The notes beneath the pieces were generated by a model that searched no databases, was not told the origin of the DNA, and saw only the letters and a program-made list of their open reading frames with translations. A stretch of 64,000 bases of DNA from Deltaproteobacteria bacterium (GTDB taxonomy: Bacteria; Desulfobacterota_D; UBA1144; Nemesobacterales; CSP1-2): the NCBI GenBank assembly GCA_016187835.1, contig JACPIY010000079.1, positions 394 through 64,393 of the forward strand, given 5' to 3'. Positions 17,963 through 37,598 of the stretch are shown piece by piece. The translations under genes were made by a program, and so were the position numbers. The first letter of the stretch is position 1; each line of letters opens with the position of its first letter.

Positions 17963-18037
17963 TGGTGGGCGGTACTGGATTTGAACCAGCGACTTCCACC
18001 GTGTGAGGATGGCACTCTACCGCTGAGTTAACCGCCC
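17963..18037 (-). tRNA. tRNA-Val (anticodon CAC)
   Basis: Minus strand folds as a 75-nt cloverleaf: acceptor GGGCGGT/ACCGCCC, D-stem ACTC/GAGT, anticodon stem CCATC/GGTGG with loop CUCACAC (U33, CAC, A37), T-loop TTCAAAT, encoded 3' CCA. Confidence 0.85.
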
Positions 18038-22697: not shown

Positions 22698-23804
22698 TTG
22701 CCTAAAATAACAGTTGGAGTTGTTTTTGGAGGAAAGTCAGTTGAGCATGAAATTTCACTCCTTTCGGCAAAATCAATTCTAAGAAATTTAAACTCGAATA
22801 AGTACTTAGTCTTCCCGATCTTCATCGAAAAAAACGGAACATGGCGAAAAGCCTCGGTTGAAGACTGGCTAAGGGATGGAGGGCTGGAAATATTCAGCAA
22901 CTCTTTTCTTTCGCCGTCACTAAACCCAGAAAAACCAGTATTTTACGAAATCAGAGCAAACAGAGTTGAAAGAGAGCATAAGGTTGATGTCCTCTTTCCC
23001 GTACTCCACGGAACCTACGGGGAAGACGGGACAGTTCAAGGGCTGTTCGAACTCATGGGAGTTCCCTTCGTCGGAGCTTCGGTTCTTGGTTCTTCAGTCG
23101 GCATGGATAAGATTGTAATGAAAACAATGTTTAAGGAATCTGGCCTTCCTGTAGTGAATTTCATCGGGTTCTACAGCTATGAATGGGAATCGAGAAAAGA
23201 TGAAATAAAAAAACGGCTTCTTGATGAAATCACAGTACCATGCTTTGTCAAATCGGCAAACCTCGGCTCAAGCGTCGGTATAACAAAAGTGAAATCAAAA
23301 GATAAATTAGAAGAAGCTGTAGACTATGCCTGTAATTTTTCACATAGAATAATAGTTGAAAAAGCCGTTCAAAACCCGAGAGAGATTGAAGTAAGTGTTT
23401 TGGGAAATGAAGCCCCGATTGCCTCACTTCCTGGTGAAATCGTTCCGAAGAGGGAATTTTACGACTACATCGCAAAGTACTTGGAAGAAAGCACCGAGCT
23501 TATCGCTCCGGCTAAGCTTGATAAAGAAACAGTAGAAGAACTACAGGAATATGCAATTAAAGCTTTTAAGGCTATAGACTGTGAGGGGATGGGAAGAGTG
23601 GATTTCCTATTGGAAAAAACAACTGGCGAGATTTTTGTAAGCGAGATCAATACAATTCCTGGCTTTACTCAGATAAGTATGTATCCGAAACTATGGGAAG
23701 TAAGCGGAATAACATACCCGGAGCTTATCTCAAAGCTGATTGACCTGGCGATTGAAAGGCATGAAATGAAGAAGAAATTGAGGACCGATATAGAACTGAG
23801 GTAG
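22698..23804 (+). CDS. ddl: D-alanine--D-alanine ligase
   Basis: 'KITVGVVFGGKSVEHEISLLSAKSI' N-terminus and ATP-grasp body. Confidence 0.9.
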   Translation: MPKITVGVVFGGKSVEHEISLLSAKSILRNLNSNKYLVFPIFIEKNGTWRKASVEDWLRDGGLEIFSNSFLSPSLNPEKPVFYEIRANRVEREHKVDVLFPVLHGTYGEDGTVQGLFELMGVPFVGASVLGSSVGMDKIVMKTMFKESGLPVVNFIGFYSYEWESRKDEIKKRLLDEITVPCFVKSANLGSSVGITKVKSKDKLEEAVDYACNFSHRIIVEKAVQNPREIEVSVLGNEAPIASLPGEIVPKREFYDYIAKYLEESTELIAPAKLDKETVEELQEYAIKAFKAIDCEGMGRVDFLLEKTTGEIFVSEINTIPGFTQISMYPKLWEVSGITYPELISKLIDLAIERHEMKKKLRTDIELR

Positions 23805-23808
23805 ACAT

Positions 23809-24231
23809 CTATTCTAAATTTAAAAATCTTTCCGAAATTTCAATAAAATCCTTTATATCTTGAAGCTTATTCCTGAGGATATCATAAAGAATTTCGTAGT
23901 TTAACTCTTCATATTCATGCGTTAAAACATTTCTAAACCCAACCAGCTTAGTCATCTTATCTTTCATTTCAGTCTTAATAACATTTTCTTCAGCCAATAT
24001 GACGAAGGATTCGCTCATAGTAGTTGGCTTGCGGAATCCAGAAATTGATATTATTACCTCTGCCAAATCAATTGCTGCTTGACAAACCAAGTACAAATAC
24101 CTCTCTACCGCTCCTCTCAATGTAGCATCTGTTCTTATCTCTTCTATGGAGTAATCTTGATATGACTTGAGTATGGACAAGTATTTTCTGACTAAACTTA
24201 TTTTATTTTCTGCAACGGAAAGATTTGTCAT
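23809..24231 (-). CDS. hepT: HepT-like (HEPN, DUF86) toxin
   Basis: 'RNVLTHEYEELNYEILYDIL' is the HEPN R-x4-6-H motif near the C-terminus. Confidence 0.75.
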   Translation of the reverse strand: MTNLSVAENKISLVRKYLSILKSYQDYSIEEIRTDATLRGAVERYLYLVCQAAIDLAEVIISISGFRKPTTMSESFVILAEENVIKTEMKDKMTKLVGFRNVLTHEYEELNYEILYDILRNKLQDIKDFIEISERFLNLE

Positions 24232-24234
24232 ATT

Positions 24235-24627
24235 TCAGGCTTTGGTCAAACCGTACCTGTCAAGAAGTAATTTAAAATCAAAATACTCATTCAGAATCTT
24301 CGGCTCCACTATAGCCCTAAACGGCTCCTCTTCGTAAATTAAGTGACCCTCACTTATAACATTGAATTTAAACTCCGGCATCTCTGATAAATTCAAAATA
24401 GCAATTTCAACTTTATCCGTGCCTAAAATCCTGCTCAGTTGATCCATCAACTCCAGTTTAATATCAAACATATTCTTTGGATCTTTTTCATCAAAGTAGA
24501 TCGCAAAATCATAATCGCTTAAAGGACCCGCCTCCCCTTTTGCTTGGGAGCCGAACAAGTAGACAAGCTTTATTTCGGGATGGTTTTGAAATACCTTTTT
24601 TAATCTCTTCCTTAATACTTCATTCAT
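24235..24627 (-). CDS. mntA: MntA-type minimal nucleotidyltransferase antitoxin
   Basis: 'LFGSQAKGEAGPLSDYDFAIYF' (GS...DxD NTase motif). Lies upstream of and co-oriented with hepT, with a 3-nt gap. Confidence 0.75.
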   Translation of the reverse strand: MNEVLRKRLKKVFQNHPEIKLVYLFGSQAKGEAGPLSDYDFAIYFDEKDPKNMFDIKLELMDQLSRILGTDKVEIAILNLSEMPEFKFNVISEGHLIYEEEPFRAIVEPKILNEYFDFKLLLDRYGLTKA

Positions 24628-24847
24628 ACCTTAATGATATAAGATTGAAACTTAAAAATCAAAAGATAGTCTGATTGATTTCCTTTAGGAGTTATCTTAA
24701 AATTTCTCGACAAGTAAATTCTACTTAAATACTAGAGCACTAAGGTATATAATGCTTATATGAGGGAGGATGGAAGGTTGAATGTTCCGAGGTTCGAACC
24801 CAATCTAACGACAAGAACTAAATATCACAAATAGTTAGGATACACTT

Positions 24848-25354
24848 ATGGAGAAATCAACGGCAGAGTCTCGTGTGAGACGATACATTGAAGAATGGAA
24901 GCAGAAGCTCGTTGACCTCACACGAAGAAATCGTCTCATCTATTTTAAGCGAACCAAAGGTTCAACTCTGATAATCACGCAACCCGATGTCCAGACCGTT
25001 TTTGAGCGGTTAGTAATCAAGGAGGCCAATTGGGAATTCTGGTTTCCACCATCGGAAGAAAAGGATACTGACGAAGATTCTATCCTTGATCCGTCAAATC
25101 CAAGTGAGAAAGGACAAGAATCTCAGTCTCAATCAATATTTCCAGAACAAGAAGCTACTTTCAAAGAACCTATTGTTGAAGTTTATGACCTTGTCCCTAA
25201 AAAGCCCTCCACTTCATCCAAACCCATTAGAATCAATGAACTGGTGATCGAGGGTTTGGGTAGAGAAGAACTCGAAAAAGTCATAAAGAATCTCTACAGG
25301 CGTTCCAGTTCGGACTATGAAGAGCGAGGTGTCAGAATTTCTATCTTGCACTAG
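24848..25354 (+). pseudogene. Fragment 1 of the giant helicase gene (DUF4011 N-terminus)
   Basis: See the parent entry. Ends at a TAG created by the frameshift. Confidence 0.55.
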
Positions 25355-25503
25355 GAATTTGGGAATGGAAGGAAAGTAACTCATCTGAAGTTATTCGATC
25401 TCCCTTAGTTTTAGTACCAGTAGAATTAAGTCGCGAATCTGCTCGTGAACCATTTCGCCTCTCACCTGTAAGTGAGGATGTCATCCTAAATCCTGCTCTG
25501 CAA

Positions 25504-27900
25504 GTGAAGTTACGAAAGGATTTCAATATTGAACTGCCTCCACTGCCTGACGACTGGGAAGAGGTTAGTCTTTATAAGTATTTTAATTCCGTTGCTAATG
25601 CCGGTGGAAAACTTAACTGGTCGGTAAAGTTTTTAGCACTAATAGGGCTTTTTTCATTTTACAAGATAGTAATGCATCAAGACCTAGAAGCGAATGAGCC
25701 TGTGATATCTAAACATCCCATAATTTCAGCCCTCGCTGGAGAACCCCCAGAACAAGGCATTGTCGTAGGTAGTCCTATAGATGAAAAAGAACTGGACTCC
25801 ATTCGAGAACCAGATAGGATGTTCCATATTTTGGATGCCGACAGCAGTGAGCAAGTCTGCATTGAACTTGCTCGTCAGGGACAGAGCTTTGTTTTGCATG
25901 GACCTCCCGGCACTGGGAAAAGCCAAACCATTAGCAACATCATAGCCGAGTTTATAGAATCGGGCAAAATAGTTCTTTTCATCAGTGAGAAAATGGCTGC
26001 TCTAGAAGTTGTATTTAAAAGACTGCGTGAGGCTGGACTTGGAGATTTCTGCTTGGAACTCCATAGCCATAAAACAAATAAAAGGGAAGTTATTAAAGAG
26101 CTCAACCGTAGTCTCGAAGAACGAATTGTACCAAAGAAATCAATATCAGAAATCGAATTCCAAAGACTGCTTCAGTTAAGAGATAAACTCAATAATTATG
26201 TTACTGCCCTACATAAAATTCGTGAGCCATTAGGAATAAGCGTATTTAACGCGCTTAGCAAGCTTGTTAGTCTTAGGAATGTTCAATTCGTCTCGGTCAA
26301 TATTCCAAACATTGATGCGCTAACCCCCGGAAGAATCGTGGAATTTGAAGAGTTAGTAGCACAGTTAAAAAACGTCTGGGGGGTTGCCGAAGAAGGAAAA
26401 AACTTTCCTTGGTATGGATATCAAGAATCCAGAATCACTCTTGAGTTAAAATCGGAATTGTCATCTCTTCTGGAACGGCTTTTGAACCTGGTTGAACATT
26501 TAAAGTCACTTTCAAATCAATACGCATCGTCTGTAGGACTTGACTCCGTACTAAGTCTTTCTGAGGTTGAATGGCTGGTGAAAATTGGAAATCTCCTTTC
26601 CCAAAGCCCAGAGACTAGTCCAAAATGGCTTATTGGTGAAGAACTCGATAATCTAATAAAGGAAGCTACTCAATACCAAGAATTATTCAACTCATACCAA
26701 ATAACCCTAAATTCACTCCAGAAAAAGTACGACAGCAGGTTCTTCGAGCTACCAGTTGATTTTACTTCTCATATTGAGGAAGCCTGGTCTCAAACCTCTA
26801 ACTTATTTACAACTTTTGATTTTAATGGAGCAGAGTTACTCACCCACCATGCAATAATCCTAGAATTTGTTAAAGACACGAAAACCTGTATTAAGCAATG
26901 GCTAAATGATGTCAGAAATTTAGCACGATACCTAGGTTTCGAAATTGATAATCTTAGCTTGGAACGCATAAAACAAATCGGGAAGCTTTCTTTACTTTGT
27001 TGTTCGCATACTCGACCCGAAACAAATTGGTTTGACCCTATTTTTCTTCAAAATGTTAAGAATATTTTGCCAAAGGCCCGTGAGTCCTACGTAGAATATA
27101 AACATAAGAAACAAAGTATAATGGAGCAATACTATGAAACGATTTTTGAATTGGACCTGGATAGGCTTGCACAGTGTTACAGTGGCAATTATCGAACTTT
27201 ATTTGATCTGCTAATGCCTGCCTTCTTTCACCCTTCTAAGCAAGATGCAAAAACAATAACTACTTATCATAAAACAGAACAAAATTATACTGCAGCAATG
27301 TTTTCTGCTCCCCAGTCTTATAAGGAAGATACCTATAGAAAAGGTATAGAGTTTCTACAAGTTTTTGAAAGATTCCAACAGTTGTCACGAGATTTGCTAG
27401 TAAGCGCATATGAACTCCTACAAATATTAGGCGTACAAGTAGATCACACAAATCTGGAAAAGATACGAGACTTGGCACGGTTAGTGATACAAACTGGAGA
27501 GGTAAGTTGTGAAGCAGAATGGTTAGACCCTGTCAGGTTAAAGCAAGTGGGAGCTCTTCTTCCAACCATCAAGAATGACTATCTTGATTTTAAAAAATCT
27601 AAAGAGAAATTGATGGAGAACTATGATGAGAGTTTTCTCGAAATGGATCTCGATACACTTATAGAAAAGTATAATAGTGCCTATAAAAGACTATTTCGCT
27701 TGTTAAAACCCTCCTATTACAAAGATCAAAAAGCTATAGCTCGTACAACCCGTAGCGGTAACATTCCCACATCTTTAAAGAAAGACCTTTTAGCTGCTCG
27801 CGAGCTAAAGCGACATGCAATAAGACTCGAAAAAGAACGCGAGCAAACAGCTCAAATATTAGGTCGTCTATTCCAGGGCATATTACAAACTTCGAACTGA
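25504..27900 (+). pseudogene. Fragment 2 (rest of DUF4011, Walker A, first half of the repetitive insert)
   Basis: The frame is open upstream to 25321 without an ATG. Internal ~150-aa tandem modules ('LERIKQIGKLSLLCC...NWFDP' and 'LEKIRDLARLVIQTG...EWLDP'). Confidence 0.55.
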
Positions 27901-27932
27901 TAGAGCTTGCATACAATTTAGCTTTAGAAGGT

Positions 27933-29252
27933 GTGAAAATTACTGGTTTTCCAGTTCCGCATGAATTAATAAAAGTTCTATCTTTTGACACCCAGTCTAA
28001 CCGCGAAATTATTAATCTTGGACATAAACTTATTCGCTTATTTCAAGACTGGAGCGAATCGGTACAGAATTTTACATACCTCTCTTCATATGAGCAGACA
28101 ACCATTACTGAGTCCTCTATCTTGCGAAGCTCGCTTCCGATATTTGAGCAGTGGTTGTTTAGTCTTGAGCTTCCACTTTCCGATTTAAAAGCCATAGCCA
28201 AGACAAACCATGGAGAGTCTATACCATCAACGGTACGAGAGGATCTATTAAGAGCTTATGAAGTAAAGCAGATTCAAGTTCAACTAAAAAACGAAACCGA
28301 AAATTTAAATCTTCTACTAGGGCAGTATTTCAAAGGGGAGGATACAGATTTTGATTTAATAGAAAAAGCTCTTAACATTGCAAGTGAAGCTTTGCTTCTA
28401 ATCAGACAGCCAAACATACCAAAGGAACTTGTAAATGCTATCTCATTGGGAACGATTCCCTCTCCAGAATTACAAACCGTAGGATCACGCATATTAAATT
28501 CCTTGGAGGCTTGGGAAAAATCAGCCCATGATTTAAGCCACCTAATTCCAGTAGACCGTCTACCCGGATCCGAAGCATCTATGTGGTTAAGCCCTATACA
28601 AAATTTAGAGCAGTGGGTTGACGATATCGAAACACCTCTATCCAATTTATCCTCTCAAATAGTCAATATTCTTAAAACCTGCTTCCAATTCAATCCACCT
28701 GACTTAGCAACTTTAGTTCGTGATTTACAAGCTTTAGATAACTTAAGAGATTTTGAATCCCTTATTACGAGAGAATCGGAACGCCTTCAATCGCTTTATG
28801 ATTCTTGGTTCCTAGGTGTCAATACTAAATGGAGTGAAATTGTATCAGCTCTCAATTGGACAAGAGAAATTCGTTTTTTGTTCGGCAATCGCTCTATGCC
28901 TGCTTTCTTTGTTGATCTTGCATCTCAAGGGGCAAGATCCGCCCCTAACTCGCAAGAATTAACTAAGATTTACCAAATTACTATAGAGCTTTTTCAATCT
29001 CTTCAAAGTCGGTTTGATTTACAAGAACTCGACTATAATGGAATTCCGCTCCGCGAACTAGAACTTGACCAGTTACTACAAAGACTTATCCAACTTCGTA
29101 CCAGGATTGATGAGCTACAAGACTGGATAGCATTCAAAGTACTTGAAAAACGATTTGTTGAAGTTGGATTATTCAGTTTTCTCCAACAGCTCACTGGTAA
29201 TCCCCCTCCAGCCCATCAATTATTGGATATCTTTCGAAGAGGAATCTACTAG
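27933..29252 (+). pseudogene. Fragment 3 (second half of the repetitive insert)
   Basis: The frame is open from 27762 and overlaps fragment 2's frame. Ends at in-frame TAG 29250. Confidence 0.5.
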
Positions 29253-29273
29253 GCTTGGGTTGATAGGTTCTAC

Positions 29274-31523
29274 ATGTTAGACCAAAATCTTGGAGACTTC
29301 AGAGGGCAAAACCATGAACAAGCAGTTGCTGAATTCCGTGAACTAGACCAGAAATTAAATCGTCTATCCGCATATCTAGTAATTGAGAAAGCAAATTTAC
29401 GCAAACCACGAGACCTTTTCATACAGGCGCGCGATACTGAAGTAGCCGTTCTCAAACAAGAAGGCGCGAAGAGAAGGCGCCATTTGCCTATCCGCCGTCT
29501 TTTCGAGAGGATTCCAAATCTATTAACTCGCCTTAAACCATGCTTGTTCATGAGCCCACTTTCAGTAAGTCAATTTCTCCCCTCAACAGTGCTTAAGTTT
29601 GATCTAGTAGTCTTTGATGAGGCTTCTCAGATTTGTACAGAGGACGCTGTAGGATCCATCTACCGCGGACATCAACTAGTCGTTGCCGGAGATAACAAAC
29701 AATTACCGCCTACTGCTTTTTTCCAACAGGGAATCGCAGAAGAGTACGATTGGGATGATATTGGTGATGAAGAATTTGCAATCTTTGAAAGCATTCTCGA
29801 CCAATGTAAATCGATAGGTCTACCTGAAAAGATGCTCAGGTGGCACTATCGCAGTAAACATGAGTCTTTAATCGCCTTTTCCAATAGACGATTTTACTTA
29901 GATAGGTTGATTACATTCCCATCTTGCCGACTTAGGCATGAAACTCTGGGTATCAAGTTTTATTATGTTCCTGATGGCGTATATGACAGGGGTGTTAAAA
30001 GAAACAACCCTCGGGAAGCACAAGTCGTTACAGACTTGGTCTTTGATCATTTGCGTCAATACCCAACTAAAACACTCGGAATTGTAGCTTTTAACTTACA
30101 ACAAATGACTACTATAGAAGATGAGATTGAGCTACGCCTAAGGGCTCAGCCTGAATTCGAACAATTTTTTAAGGAGGATCGACTTGAGGGGTTTTTTGTT
30201 AAGAATTTGGAGAACGTGCAAGGTGACGAACGGGATGTCATCATCTTCAGTATAGGGTATGGATATGACCAGAATAAACGAATCACCATGAATTTTGGTC
30301 CACTGAATAAAGCTGGGGGGGAGCGTAGGCTTAATGTTGCCGTAACCCGTGCACGTGAGAAGGTTAAACTTGTCAGTTCAATCAGGGCATCAGATATTGA
30401 CTTGAACGCTACTCAAGCTGCTGGTGTACTAAATCTATATCACTATTTGGATTATGCTGAACGAGGATTATCAGCACTGGAACTTTCGCACCCTCAGGGC
30501 TCAGGTGAGTACGAATCACCACTTGAGGAGGACATTGCTAATGAAATTAGGCAATTGGGCTATCAAGTTATACCCCAAGTGGGTTGTAGTGGCTACCGAA
30601 TTGATTTAGGTGTAATTAATCCAACTGAACCAGGCCACTTTTTATTAGGAGTGGAATGCGATGGAGCAACCTATCACTCCGCTTACACCGCGAGAGACCG
30701 AGATCGGCTTAGACAACAAGTGCTAGAAGCGTTTGGCTGGCGCATACATAGGATATGGTCACCCGATTGGATAAGCAAACGAGACTCAGAGTTAAAAAAA
30801 CTCAAGCAAGCTATTGAGGATGCGAGACAGCATATTTTACATCATTTCAAAAGTGAAAATCCTGACTCGGAATACAGAGCAATCCAAACCTTTAACTTCC
30901 AAATAGAAACGCAGATAGTTAAGCTTCAACCCGATGAGAAAACCGGAATTCTGGCTGAAACGATTCCATATAAAGTTTGTAAACTTAAACCCAGTAGCAA
31001 GATTGGGTCAGAATTTCACCTTCCTCAACATAGACAAGAGCAAAGCCAACTCATCGCAAAGTTGGTAGAACAAGAGGGACCAGTTCATATCCAATACGCG
31101 GCACGTAGGTTAATTAGTGCATGGGGATTAGGACGGATGGGCCCGCGAGTTGTGAAAGCTATCAAAGAAGCTGTGAAACTCTGCCAGAAAGAAGGTACCT
31201 TGAAAAGAGAAGGAAAGTTTTTATGGCCACCGCACGTTACAAAGGTATCTGTACGAGTTCCAGTTGACGGCGTTCCAGAGACGTTTAGAGCGATTGAGCA
31301 CATCCCCACCGAAGAGATTAAAGATGCGATGCTTATTATAATTCGGCATGGCCTTAGTATTAGCGTTGAATCCCTTCTAATAGAAACAGCGAGAATCTTT
31401 GGGTTTAACAGAACCGGAGACAACATTAGAAAGGAATTACTAAAGGTATTCAAAGAATTACTGGAAGAAGGTATGATCGTCCAGAGTGGCGGTTTCGTAG
31501 CTCTAAGAACAAACAAGACATAG
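29274..31523 (+). pseudogene. Fragment 4 (helicase motifs II-VI, Vsr/DUF559-like nuclease, DUF3320)
   Basis: Same frame as fragment 3. 'GIY*AWVDRFYMLDQNLGDF' reads through the TAG. Confidence 0.55.
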
Positions 31524-36210: not shown

Positions 36211-36527
36211 TTTTAACGTTCTCCTTTTGCAGCTTAACTATTTGACCGCTAATAGACAGGACTAGGTATTAGGTTTTCAGTGACAACAATTAAGTTAAAA
36301 CCTAACAGGCAACACCTCAAACCTAATCCAACAATGTCAATTGGCTTCGTGTTGTGGTTCCTGCAATCCCCCTCTTAAACGCTATAACAAATCCTAGCAC
36401 CTGGCCTCTCAGTGAACTCACGACGAAAACCGACTATAGCCTGCGATTTCGCGGCTTAAGACCTTCGAATTATATTATATTTATCAGAAAAGTTAAACAA
36501 AGGGAATCTATATAATAAAAAAGAATC

Positions 36528-36642
36528 GGGGCAGCTACCTACTTTCCCACTCCCGTACGGGAGCAGTATCATGGGCCTTGAAGAGCTTAACTTCCGGGTT
36601 CGGAATGGGACCGGGTGTTTCCTCTTCAGTATAGCCACCCAG
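36528..36642 (-). rRNA. rrf: 5S ribosomal RNA (stand-alone copy)
   Basis: Minus strand 'UCUGGGUGGCUAUACUGAAGAGGAAACACCCGGUCCCAUUCCGAACCCGGAAGUUAAGCUCUUCAAGGCCCAUGAUACUGCUCCCGUACGGGAGUGGGAAAGUAGGUAGCUGCCCC' matches the bacterial 5S consensus: helix I ends pair, 'CCGAAC...GGAAGUUAAG' loop, 'GGGAGUGGGAAAGUAGG'. Confidence 0.75.
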
Positions 36643-36731: not shown

Positions 36732-37598
36732 ATGGAAGAACTTATAAACAAATTTATTGGAGCACTTGACAGAAGAGAAACAACCAAAGAGACTTATCTC
36801 AAAGCCCTTCGAGAGTTTGCCAAGTGGCTGGGAAAAAGCACTCCTTTAATACTGACCTCCCACGATATTCAACTTTATAAGGAATTTCTGGCTTCTAAGA
36901 ATCTATCTCCAACCTCGCTTTCCACCTACCTTACGGCTGTTAGGAGATTCTACTACTATCTAATTTCAGTAGATATGGTCACCGAAAACCCCGCGAAGAA
37001 AATTAGAGGAAGCGGAAGACCACAAAGGCATCTTAGAGATCCACTATCTCATGATGAAGTAAAAAATCTGCTGGATGCGATTGATCCGTCCTCTTCAGTA
37101 GGACTCAGAGACTGGGCAATGGTAAACTTTATGGTAAGGTGTGGCCTTAGCGAAATAGAAATCGTAAGGGCAAATGCTGGCGATATAAAAGTTAAGGGGG
37201 GTAAGCAGGTGATCTTTGTTCAGGGAAAAAGCAAAGATAAGAAAGACGAATATGTAATACTTACACCTTCCGCACGAGAAGCACTTGAAAAATATCTTGA
37301 AGGCAGAGGGAAAACCAATGAAGATGAACCATTATTTTGTGGTGTAGGAAATAGGGCGAAAGGAGAAAGAATAACAACCCGTGCGATAAGGGAGAGGGTG
37401 AATTATTATCTTAACCTTGCGGGACTTAAAAGAAAGGGGATAACTCCATATAGCCTTCGACACACAGCAGCACTTCTTGCAATCGAAAGCGGAGCAGCAG
37501 TTTCAGAAGTAAAACAAATGCTTCGTCATAAAACAATTGATTCTACTCTAGTTTACTTTGAAGAATCAGAGGAATTAAAGAGAAAAGATAAAATATAA
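36732..37598 (+). CDS. Tyrosine site-specific recombinase (XerC/XerD-like)
   Basis: SAM-like N-domain ('TKETYLKALREFAKWL'). Catalytic domain with 'R...HTAALLAIESGA...LRHKTIDSTLVY' (R-H-R-Y residues). Confidence 0.75.
   Translation: MEELINKFIGALDRRETTKETYLKALREFAKWLGKSTPLILTSHDIQLYKEFLASKNLSPTSLSTYLTAVRRFYYYLISVDMVTENPAKKIRGSGRPQRHLRDPLSHDEVKNLLDAIDPSSSVGLRDWAMVNFMVRCGLSEIEIVRANAGDIKVKGGKQVIFVQGKSKDKKDEYVILTPSAREALEKYLEGRGKTNEDEPLFCGVGNRAKGERITTRAIRERVNYYLNLAGLKRKGITPYSLRHTAALLAIESGAAVSEVKQMLRHKTIDSTLVYFEESEELKRKDKI

Follow-up and report, generated by a model that had tools for sequence, protein, structure and literature searches.

The question raised by the 64,000-nucleotide stretch of a deltaproteobacterial genome analyzed here (contig JACPIY010000079.1 of assembly GCA_016187835.1, referred to below as the window) is whether four successive open reading frames (ORFs) at positions 24848-31523 of its plus strand are the remains of one broken gene, the parts of a split but functional system, or the product of a faulty assembly. 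All three possibilities were put forward in a first-pass annotation made from the sequence alone. The evidence gathered in this work points, with a probability that we put at about 85%, to a recently inactivated gene for a helicase-nuclease of the DUF4011/PDC-S37/ProA/Hhe group, a candidate single-gene defense against phages.

The conceptual fusion of the four ORFs (frames 2, 1, 0, and 0) is 2,225 amino acids (aa) long, in line with the single DUF4011-helicase-nuclease-DUF3320 gene of about 2,220 codons that had been proposed for this region. Pfam profiles run across the fragment boundaries: the DUF4011 profile (158 positions) is cut at its position 99 between fragments 1 and 2, and the AAA_11 profile is divided between fragment 2 (positions 4-75) and fragment 4 (positions 212-255). 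Profile searches performed on the fragments (Pfam) and on the fusion (PADLOC and NCBIfam) recovered a single DUF4011-helicase architecture. Fragments 2 and 4 together contain the full set of conserved core helicase motifs, i.e., Walker A, DEAS, GDNKQLPPT, NVQGDERD, and VAVTRAR; no Pfam domain was matched in fragment 3. As the only sequence matches found in the PDB were Sen1 and IGHMBP2 (E 1e-8), the motor is a Upf1-like helicase of superfamily 1B (SF1B). MTES_1575 is an endonuclease of the Vsr fold and DUF3320 is a winged helix-turn-helix domain (PMC3710099). The profile matches show that the intact ancestor was composed of DUF4011, a Upf1-like SF1B helicase, a Vsr-like MTES_1575 endonuclease, and a DUF3320 winged helix, with an all-alpha insertion of at least 900 aa that splits the first RecA domain between its motifs Ia and II. 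The coordinates of all these elements are presented in Table 1.

The sites of the three lesions that separate the fragments were pinned by nucleotide alignment to the two closest relatives (contigs L015 and L018) and by protein alignment to relatives within the family. It had been claimed that the gene carries a +1 frameshift near 25330-25345 and a second shift within 27762-27900. Both shifts are present, and the second one could be narrowed to 27876-27879, but their direction has to be corrected, as each is a deletion of one nucleotide (nt) and not a +1 change, so that at both sites reading continues one position back. The window reads AGAATT-TCTATC at lesion 1, where the relatives have AGGATTCTCTATC and AGGATCCTCTATC, and CAGGG-CAT at lesion 2, versus CAGGGACAT in L015, yielding LFQGHDTNFELIE. 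The in-frame amber codon at 29250 was confirmed; it occupies the place of a Gln codon, and the Gln lost there is kept in 10 of the 11 aligned relatives. Since the intact relatives read without interruption through each of the three sites, all three lesions are derived. In the repaired frame there is no stop other than this amber codon.

The reality of the lesions was verified with Logan contigs, each assembled independently from a single sequencing run and retrieved by exact-protein look-ups. Lesion 1 is carried by contigs from SRR12113422, SRR12113390, SRR12113428, and SRR12113401, lesion 2 by those from SRR12113429, SRR12113428, and SRR12113401, and lesion 3 by those from SRR12113422, SRR12113429, SRR12113428, and SRR12113401. 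Over each lesion, the contigs of these five runs align to the window with zero gaps and 99.88-100% identity. Their only difference from the window within the gene is TG/CC at positions 25848-25849 of the plus strand, where TG of the window gives Glu335 and CC, found in contigs of three runs, gives Gln335, which belongs to the DADSSQ motif and is shared by at least 95% of the 118 family homologs compared.

It is highly improbable that the organism has an intact gene and that the three lesions are errors of the consensus sequence. Such an artefact could be suspected, as the source is a metagenome-assembled genome (MAG) and as two lesions are single-base deletions beside short runs (TTT and GGG); it should be stressed, however, that each lesion was recovered gap-free in three or four independently assembled runs and that one of the lesions is a substitution. 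The Logan contigs are also broken within the gene, yet two of the breaks (25847/25850) coincide with the real TG/CC polymorphism. The search of the gene for direct and inverted repeats gave no match beyond 30 nt or above chance level. The flanking genes have the same length as in a sister lineage lacking the gene (described below), and no lesions were found in them in this comparison, which covered approximately 12 kb of aligned flank. At the level of contigs, the assembly-error reading is therefore essentially refuted, and the view of the locus as an error-prone repetitive assembly region did not hold, as the lesions are gap-free in the assemblies of five runs and nucleotide repeats longer than 30 nt are lacking.

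Because no ORF contains both motifs I/Ia (fragment 2) and motifs II-VI (fragment 4), the broken gene is almost certainly inactive. The same separation of the ATPase motifs bears on the split but functional system suggested earlier, in which separately translated fragments would assemble into an active helicase-nuclease complex. The motifs are intact in all fragments of the window, and the closest relative has a single frameshift that could be tolerated, affecting the poorly conserved stretch that links DUF4011 to the helicase and being fixed in five samples. The breaks found in the window, in contrast, hit the ERGVRIL motif, a helical module, and a conserved Gln, and their positions are common to no relative. 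Moreover, the first 61 codons of the open frame of fragment 2 include no start codon, and more than 100 members of the family are single polypeptides, which together make a working complex of fragments unlikely. Programmed recoding, i.e., two -1 ribosomal frameshifts combined with read-through of the amber codon to give the full-length protein, would agree with the -1 direction of both shifts. Nevertheless, no slippery heptamer of the X XXY YYZ type is present (the sites are AGA ATT TCT and CAG GGC ATA), the sites are unconserved, the relatives being in-frame there and having the Gln codon, and three independent events of this kind in one gene would be unprecedented, so that we regard recoding as having a negligible chance.

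The inactivation itself seems to be recent. The catalytic motifs of the helicase and of the nuclease are all intact, and the ratio of nonsynonymous to synonymous substitution rates (dN/dS), calculated against the two closest relatives, was 0.13-0.16 for the whole gene and 0.08 for the portion encoding the helicase and the nuclease. It was found that 5.1% of random substitutions in the repaired ORF would make a stop; the single stop observed thus suggests no more than a few tens of neutral substitutions, far below the 4-9% divergence from the sister lineage. At columns conserved in at least 95% of homologs, the window protein has 33 mismatches (two of which are junction artefacts), compared with 18-26 in the relatives, and the derived, polymorphic change in the DADSSQ motif fits relaxed constraint. 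The intact motifs, the absence of further stops, the low dN/dS, and the change of the window allele in DADSSQ thus all speak for a recently inactivated gene, which was one of the alternatives of the first-pass annotation and the one that fits.

Table 1. Features of the helicase-nuclease locus and of the accessory segment that contains it (positions in the window).
Feature	Positions	Strand	Description
Lesion 1	25337-25341 (~25339/40; codon 162)	+	1-nt deletion, ATT-[C]TC, within the conserved ERGVRIL(Y/H) motif of DUF4011
Lesion 2	27876-27879 (~27878/9)	+	1-nt deletion, GGG-[A]CAT, within a helical module
Lesion 3	29250-29252	+	in-frame TAG in place of a conserved Gln codon (CAG to TAG; CAA in L015 and L018)
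Fragment 1	24848-25354	+	168-aa ORF (MBI2487566); N-terminal two-thirds of DUF4011 (PF13195 positions 1-99); RRNRLIYF at 24923-24946; real coding ends at ~25339
Fragment 2	25321 (open)/25504-27900	+	rest of DUF4011 (positions 99-158); Walker A GPPGTGKS at 25900-25923; motif Ia-like stretch at 25978-26007; initial part of the helical insert; PDC-S37 positions 125-601, 446 bits
Fragment 3	27762 (open)/27933-29252	+	MBI2487568 ("hypothetical"); remainder of the all-alpha insert; PDC-S37 positions 635-825
Fragment 4	29253/29274-31523	+	MBI2487569; helicase motifs II-VI, then nuclease and winged helix-turn-helix; AAA_12 1e-17; PDC-S37 913 bits
Helicase motifs in fragment 4	II 29607-29630 (VVFDEASQ); III 29688-29714; V 30213-30236; VI 30336-30362	+	
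MTES_1575-type (Vsr-like) endonuclease domain	30525-30815	+	PF18741 6e-36; DUF559 weaker, 0.003
Nuclease motifs	GVECDGATYH 30648-30677; RDRDR; RIHRIW	+	intact
DUF3320	31011-31154	+	PF11784 4e-13
Duplication A	26920-27747 (A1 26920-27255; A2 27415-27747)	+	residues 692-803 and 857-967; period 165 aa; 34% identity; E 9e-21 (masked self-BLAST)
Duplication B	27691-28598 (B1 27691-28154; B2 28155-28598)	+	residues 949-1200 and 1104-1360; period 154 aa; 27-41% identity; E 3e-18; spans lesion 2
Accessory segment	23794-31626		7,833 bp; only hepT, mntA, and the helicase-nuclease pseudogene; missing in the sister lineage
hepT	23809-24231	-	type VII toxin (HEPN RNase); intact, RNVLTH (Rx4H); Pfam HepT-like 4e-31; NCBIfam HepT_toxin 120 bits (cut-off 60)
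mntA	24235-24627	-	nucleotidyltransferase antitoxin; intact, GS...SDYD; Pfam Polbeta 7e-24; NCBIfam MntA_antitoxin 79.9 bits (cut-off 60)
Spacer separating mntA from the divergent helicase gene	24628-24847		220 bp; last 75 nt (from 24773) conserved with L015 (blastn)

The nearest relatives of the gene have frameshifts of their own. In the closest lineage (P0001, 69% aa identity), a 1-nt deletion (GCTAA-CAT) at codon ~289 (L015:2560-2640, and also L016, L017, L019, and L020) splits the gene into a 290-aa DUF4011 ORF and a 1,920-aa ORF, whose ATG lies 38 nt downstream; five contigs (three from ENA and two from JGI), each from a different sample, share exactly this split and are 99.6-99.9% identical to one another. 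In the second-closest lineage (P0002, L018:9440-9470), one nucleotide is deleted from a T4 run, leaving T3 (CTA-TTTAGG), at codon ~31, and the gene call starts at an internal TTG, without the conserved RRNRLLYF motif. Of the more distant relatives, L002-L006 are intact and L007 is broken twice: the ortholog encoded by this Bathyarchaeota MAG (MFD05377, L007:6599-12271) is distributed among three ORFs in frames 2, 3, and 2, and this split may reflect a pseudogene or sequencing errors.

All three known lineages of at least 65% identity thus have independent 1-nt deletions within the N-terminal 290 codons (162, ~289, and ~31), the next-closest relatives are intact, and the rest of the gene is under purifying selection in all three. 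This pattern may suggest a costly or autoimmune gene, in which frameshifts would be repeatedly favored in the subclade or would act as an on/off switch. We consider such selected or switchable inactivation quite improbable for the window: only three lineages are involved, the runs of 2-4 nt are far too short for efficient phase variation based on slippage, no revertant alleles occur in any contig, the two further lesions of the window are what plain neutral decay predicts, and the loss of defense genes is common. For the subclade as a whole, it is likewise doubtful that selection has repeatedly favored switching off or uncoupling the N-terminal domain of a defense enzyme that is costly or toxic to its own cell, or that a two-piece form of the enzyme is tolerated. 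The independent frameshifts of the two nearest relatives are nonetheless a small hint that the gene is costly to keep.

The recently inactivated gene was also thought to be peculiar in its expanded insert, with Walker A and Walker B separated by about 1,100 aa containing tandem modules of ~150 aa. The distance is indeed very large, but the figure proved too low: it amounts to 1,236 aa, the same as in the closest relative, P0001. In 107 of the 116 best family matches with recognizable motifs the spacing is 913-950 aa (median 916), so that the huge insert is the norm of the family; only ~320 aa are extra with respect to the median, and they represent the tandem duplications A and B, both shared by the closest relative. 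The modules are real, but they are old duplications visible at the protein level and involve no repetition at the nucleotide level. Duplication A is present in P0001 and missing from the 1,880-aa relatives; in tblastn against the latter, residues 807-1112 had no primary counterpart and gave a secondary alignment to the neighboring module. Other long forms, i.e., P0009, P0010, P0023, P0058, and P0119 (2,109-2,176 aa), contain duplications of different periods, and module gain seems to be recurrent in the family. The AlphaFold2 model of fragment 3 (based on an alignment of 21 sequences) is entirely helical and of low confidence (predicted local distance difference test score 63.8, predicted template modeling score 0.26). 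Thus, the giant insert is a family trait, modestly enlarged here, and no peculiarity of the locus. It is also worth mentioning that in the relative P0003 a zinc-ribbon-like insertion (CPNCG…CGSC) lies inside the helical insert, at residues ~1015-1050, which shows that this region tolerates foreign modules.

Comparison with the sister lineage delimited the accessory segment in which the pseudogene resides. The eight JGI contigs of this lineage (L021-L028; Ddl at least 90% identical) have flanks collinear with those of the window, at 91-96% nucleotide identity (blastn), and the similarity breaks at 23793 and 31627. The left flank comprises, in this order, thioesterase, thiolase, and ddl, and the right one eamA, SBF, exbD, exbB, the ornithine (Orn) decarboxylase gene, a xerC/D-like gene, rpoD, and dnaG. 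The segment thus separates ddl from eamA, two housekeeping genes that are transcribed toward each other; at the empty site, the ddl stop is followed by 2 nt and then by the eamA stop. At the left border (window 23780-23808, L021:3920-3945), the last four ddl codons differ, the protein ending with …DIELR in the window and with …DIGKG in the empty-site lineage, and the insertion or deletion breakpoint is for this reason placed within the 3' end of ddl. Neither flanking direct repeats nor an adjacent integrase or tRNA gene was found at the borders of the segment.

Several other genes of the surroundings deserve a brief description. A XerC/D-like tyrosine recombinase is encoded 5 kb from the segment (36732-37598, plus strand) and occupies the same place in the empty-site lineage; its presence in the sister lineage devoid of the segment ruled it out as the integrase of the latter. 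The sole tRNA gene of the window, for tRNA-Val (CAC), is situated 5.8 kb from the segment and off its border (17963-18037, minus strand). A lone 5S rRNA gene (36526-36642, minus strand, Rfam 97 bits) was identified between the Orn/diaminopimelate decarboxylase and XerC/D-like genes, and as no 16S or 23S rRNA gene is present within the 64-kb window, the rRNA genes are apparently unlinked in this organism.

Within the segment, mntA is placed upstream of hepT on the same strand, with a 3-nt gap, and both proteins score above the NCBIfam equivalog cut-offs. Like in known type VII toxin-antitoxin systems, the Rx4H and GS..D.D motifs are kept in this pair. The first-pass annotation was right that a real HepT/MntA pair adjoins the helicase gene, but the gene does not lie directly downstream of it: hepT and mntA are transcribed from the minus strand, away from the helicase gene. 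Promoter and terminator scans gave counts not above those of shuffled sequence. The closest helicase relative resembles the window only over 24773-31522 (74% nucleotide identity), and its neighboring genes differ. The HepT/MntA pair was absent from nine related loci, six of which (L002-L007) were searched with tblastn and the three closest by gene-call annotation together with Pfam searches of the few unannotated neighbors; a conserved linkage of the helicase with HepT/MntA was rejected on this basis. Hence the proposed defense-island architecture was not supported either: HepT and MntA are the sole defense-like neighbors, all the others being housekeeping genes, and the locus is a small accessory segment set among them. 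The gene arrived, or persists, within this 7.8-kb segment beside the intact HepT/MntA pair, and one may speculate that the pair helps the segment to resist deletion.

The repaired fusion was assigned to its family by profile scores. It matched PDC-S37 of PADLOC with 1535 bits over positions 4-1544 of 1550, which are covered collinearly by the four fragments. With NF058533 of NCBIfam ("anti-phage protein ProA") it scored 1422.5 bits, below the equivalog cut-off of 1500, as did the intact relatives P0009 (1490.8) and P0016 (1366.9). The Hhe profiles gave 923.8 bits (NF042953, equivalog cut-off 2000) and 617 bits (PDLC02194 of PADLOC). A functional gene of the PDC-S37-like family would be a single uninterrupted ORF, which is here disrupted by two frameshifts and one amber codon. 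The family is large, with more than 7,600 matches at E ≤ 1e-20, many of them in Bathyarchaeia, and its members are typically ~1,880 aa long; it is also represented on 560 plasmid records of PLSDB. The scan of IMG/VR for close relatives, which would indicate phage origin, found none, and that of GTDB genomes found no close relative, the best match being a Thermodesulfovibrionales MAG at 63%.

Hhe was described as a validated single-gene defense of E. coli against lambda, T3, T7, and PhiV-1 in a preprint that cites Gao et al. 2020 for it (bioRxiv 10.1101/2022.06.16.496414), in which the E1731A mutation of its Vsr-type nuclease is stated to abolish the activity. By analogy with Hhe, the intact enzyme would have recognized invading nucleic acid, and an ATP-driven 5'-3' translocase would have brought the Vsr-like nuclease to the foreign molecule, to be cut; DUF4011 and the helical insert could have taken part in sensing or regulation. 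PDC-S37, in turn, is a single-gene candidate, PDC systems being candidates proposed through "guilt-by-embedding" (Payne et al., bioRxiv 10.1101/2024.01.29.577857). No primary description of "ProA" or "PDC-S37" was found in the literature search, and ProA is used here as an NCBIfam label only.

Several points weigh against the interpretation of the locus as a recently inactivated anti-phage gene. The anti-phage role is suggested by homology, with scores below the equivalog cut-offs of both ProA and Hhe and with PDC-S37 being itself only a candidate. Furthermore, a DUF4011 gene of P. aeruginosa is a conserved core gene flanking a defense hotspot (PMC10250203), and for that reason not every DUF4011 member need be a defense gene. 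The support for the lesions consists of assembled contigs and not mapped reads, and the five runs, probably produced in a single study, would represent one population and not five.

The finding matters little beyond annotation. The separate coding sequences of the public MAG (MBI2487566, one unnamed, MBI2487568, and MBI2487569), which belong to the protein series MBI2487563-69 of a 66-kb contig, should be merged as one PDC-S37/ProA-like helicase-nuclease pseudogene. The 7.8-kb segment, carried by one sister population and missing from another, offers a clean natural example of the turnover of defense genes, with a probably very recent decay of a large gene while the neighboring toxin-antitoxin pair stays intact. 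The locus also illustrates how the huge Walker A-Walker B insert of the family grows through duplication of helical modules.

Among known systems, PDC-S37 resembles the window gene most fully: the match extends over the full length of the profile, and the order of DUF4011, the SF1 helicase, the MTES_1575 nuclease, and DUF3320 is the same. Unlike PDC-S37, the window copy is broken by three lesions and its protein has ~690 aa outside the profile, corresponding to the helical insert of the family and the two extra module copies. ProA (NF058533) is the best NCBIfam match and is collinear over profile positions 350-1903, whereas its first ~350 positions have no counterpart in the window protein. 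With Hhe, the gene shares the architecture of DUF4011, helicase, and Vsr-like nuclease and the single-gene organization; the glutamate of the nuclease ExDG motif (GVECDG) is kept in the window and in all aligned relatives, and, judging from the motif, it would be equivalent to E1731. Hhe is, however, much more distant, the middle (~846-1171) and the C-terminus of its profile being unmatched, and the DUF3320 region of the window protein falls outside the stretch that aligns to it. Sen1, IGHMBP2/SMUBP-2, and Mokosh MkoA/MkoC (the last two being weak PADLOC matches) have similar helicase motifs and the AAA_11/AAA_12 core, but they contain short 1B/1C insertions and lack DUF4011, the Vsr-like nuclease, and DUF3320; the first RecA domain of the window gene, unlike that of these Upf1-like helicases, contains an interruption of more than 1,200 aa. 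The earlier statement that the role of this family is not established remains true for the candidate PDC-S37, but not for the group as a whole, since Hhe is validated and the closer NCBIfam family is named "anti-phage protein ProA". The window gene is a further, degraded member of this known and partly characterized family.

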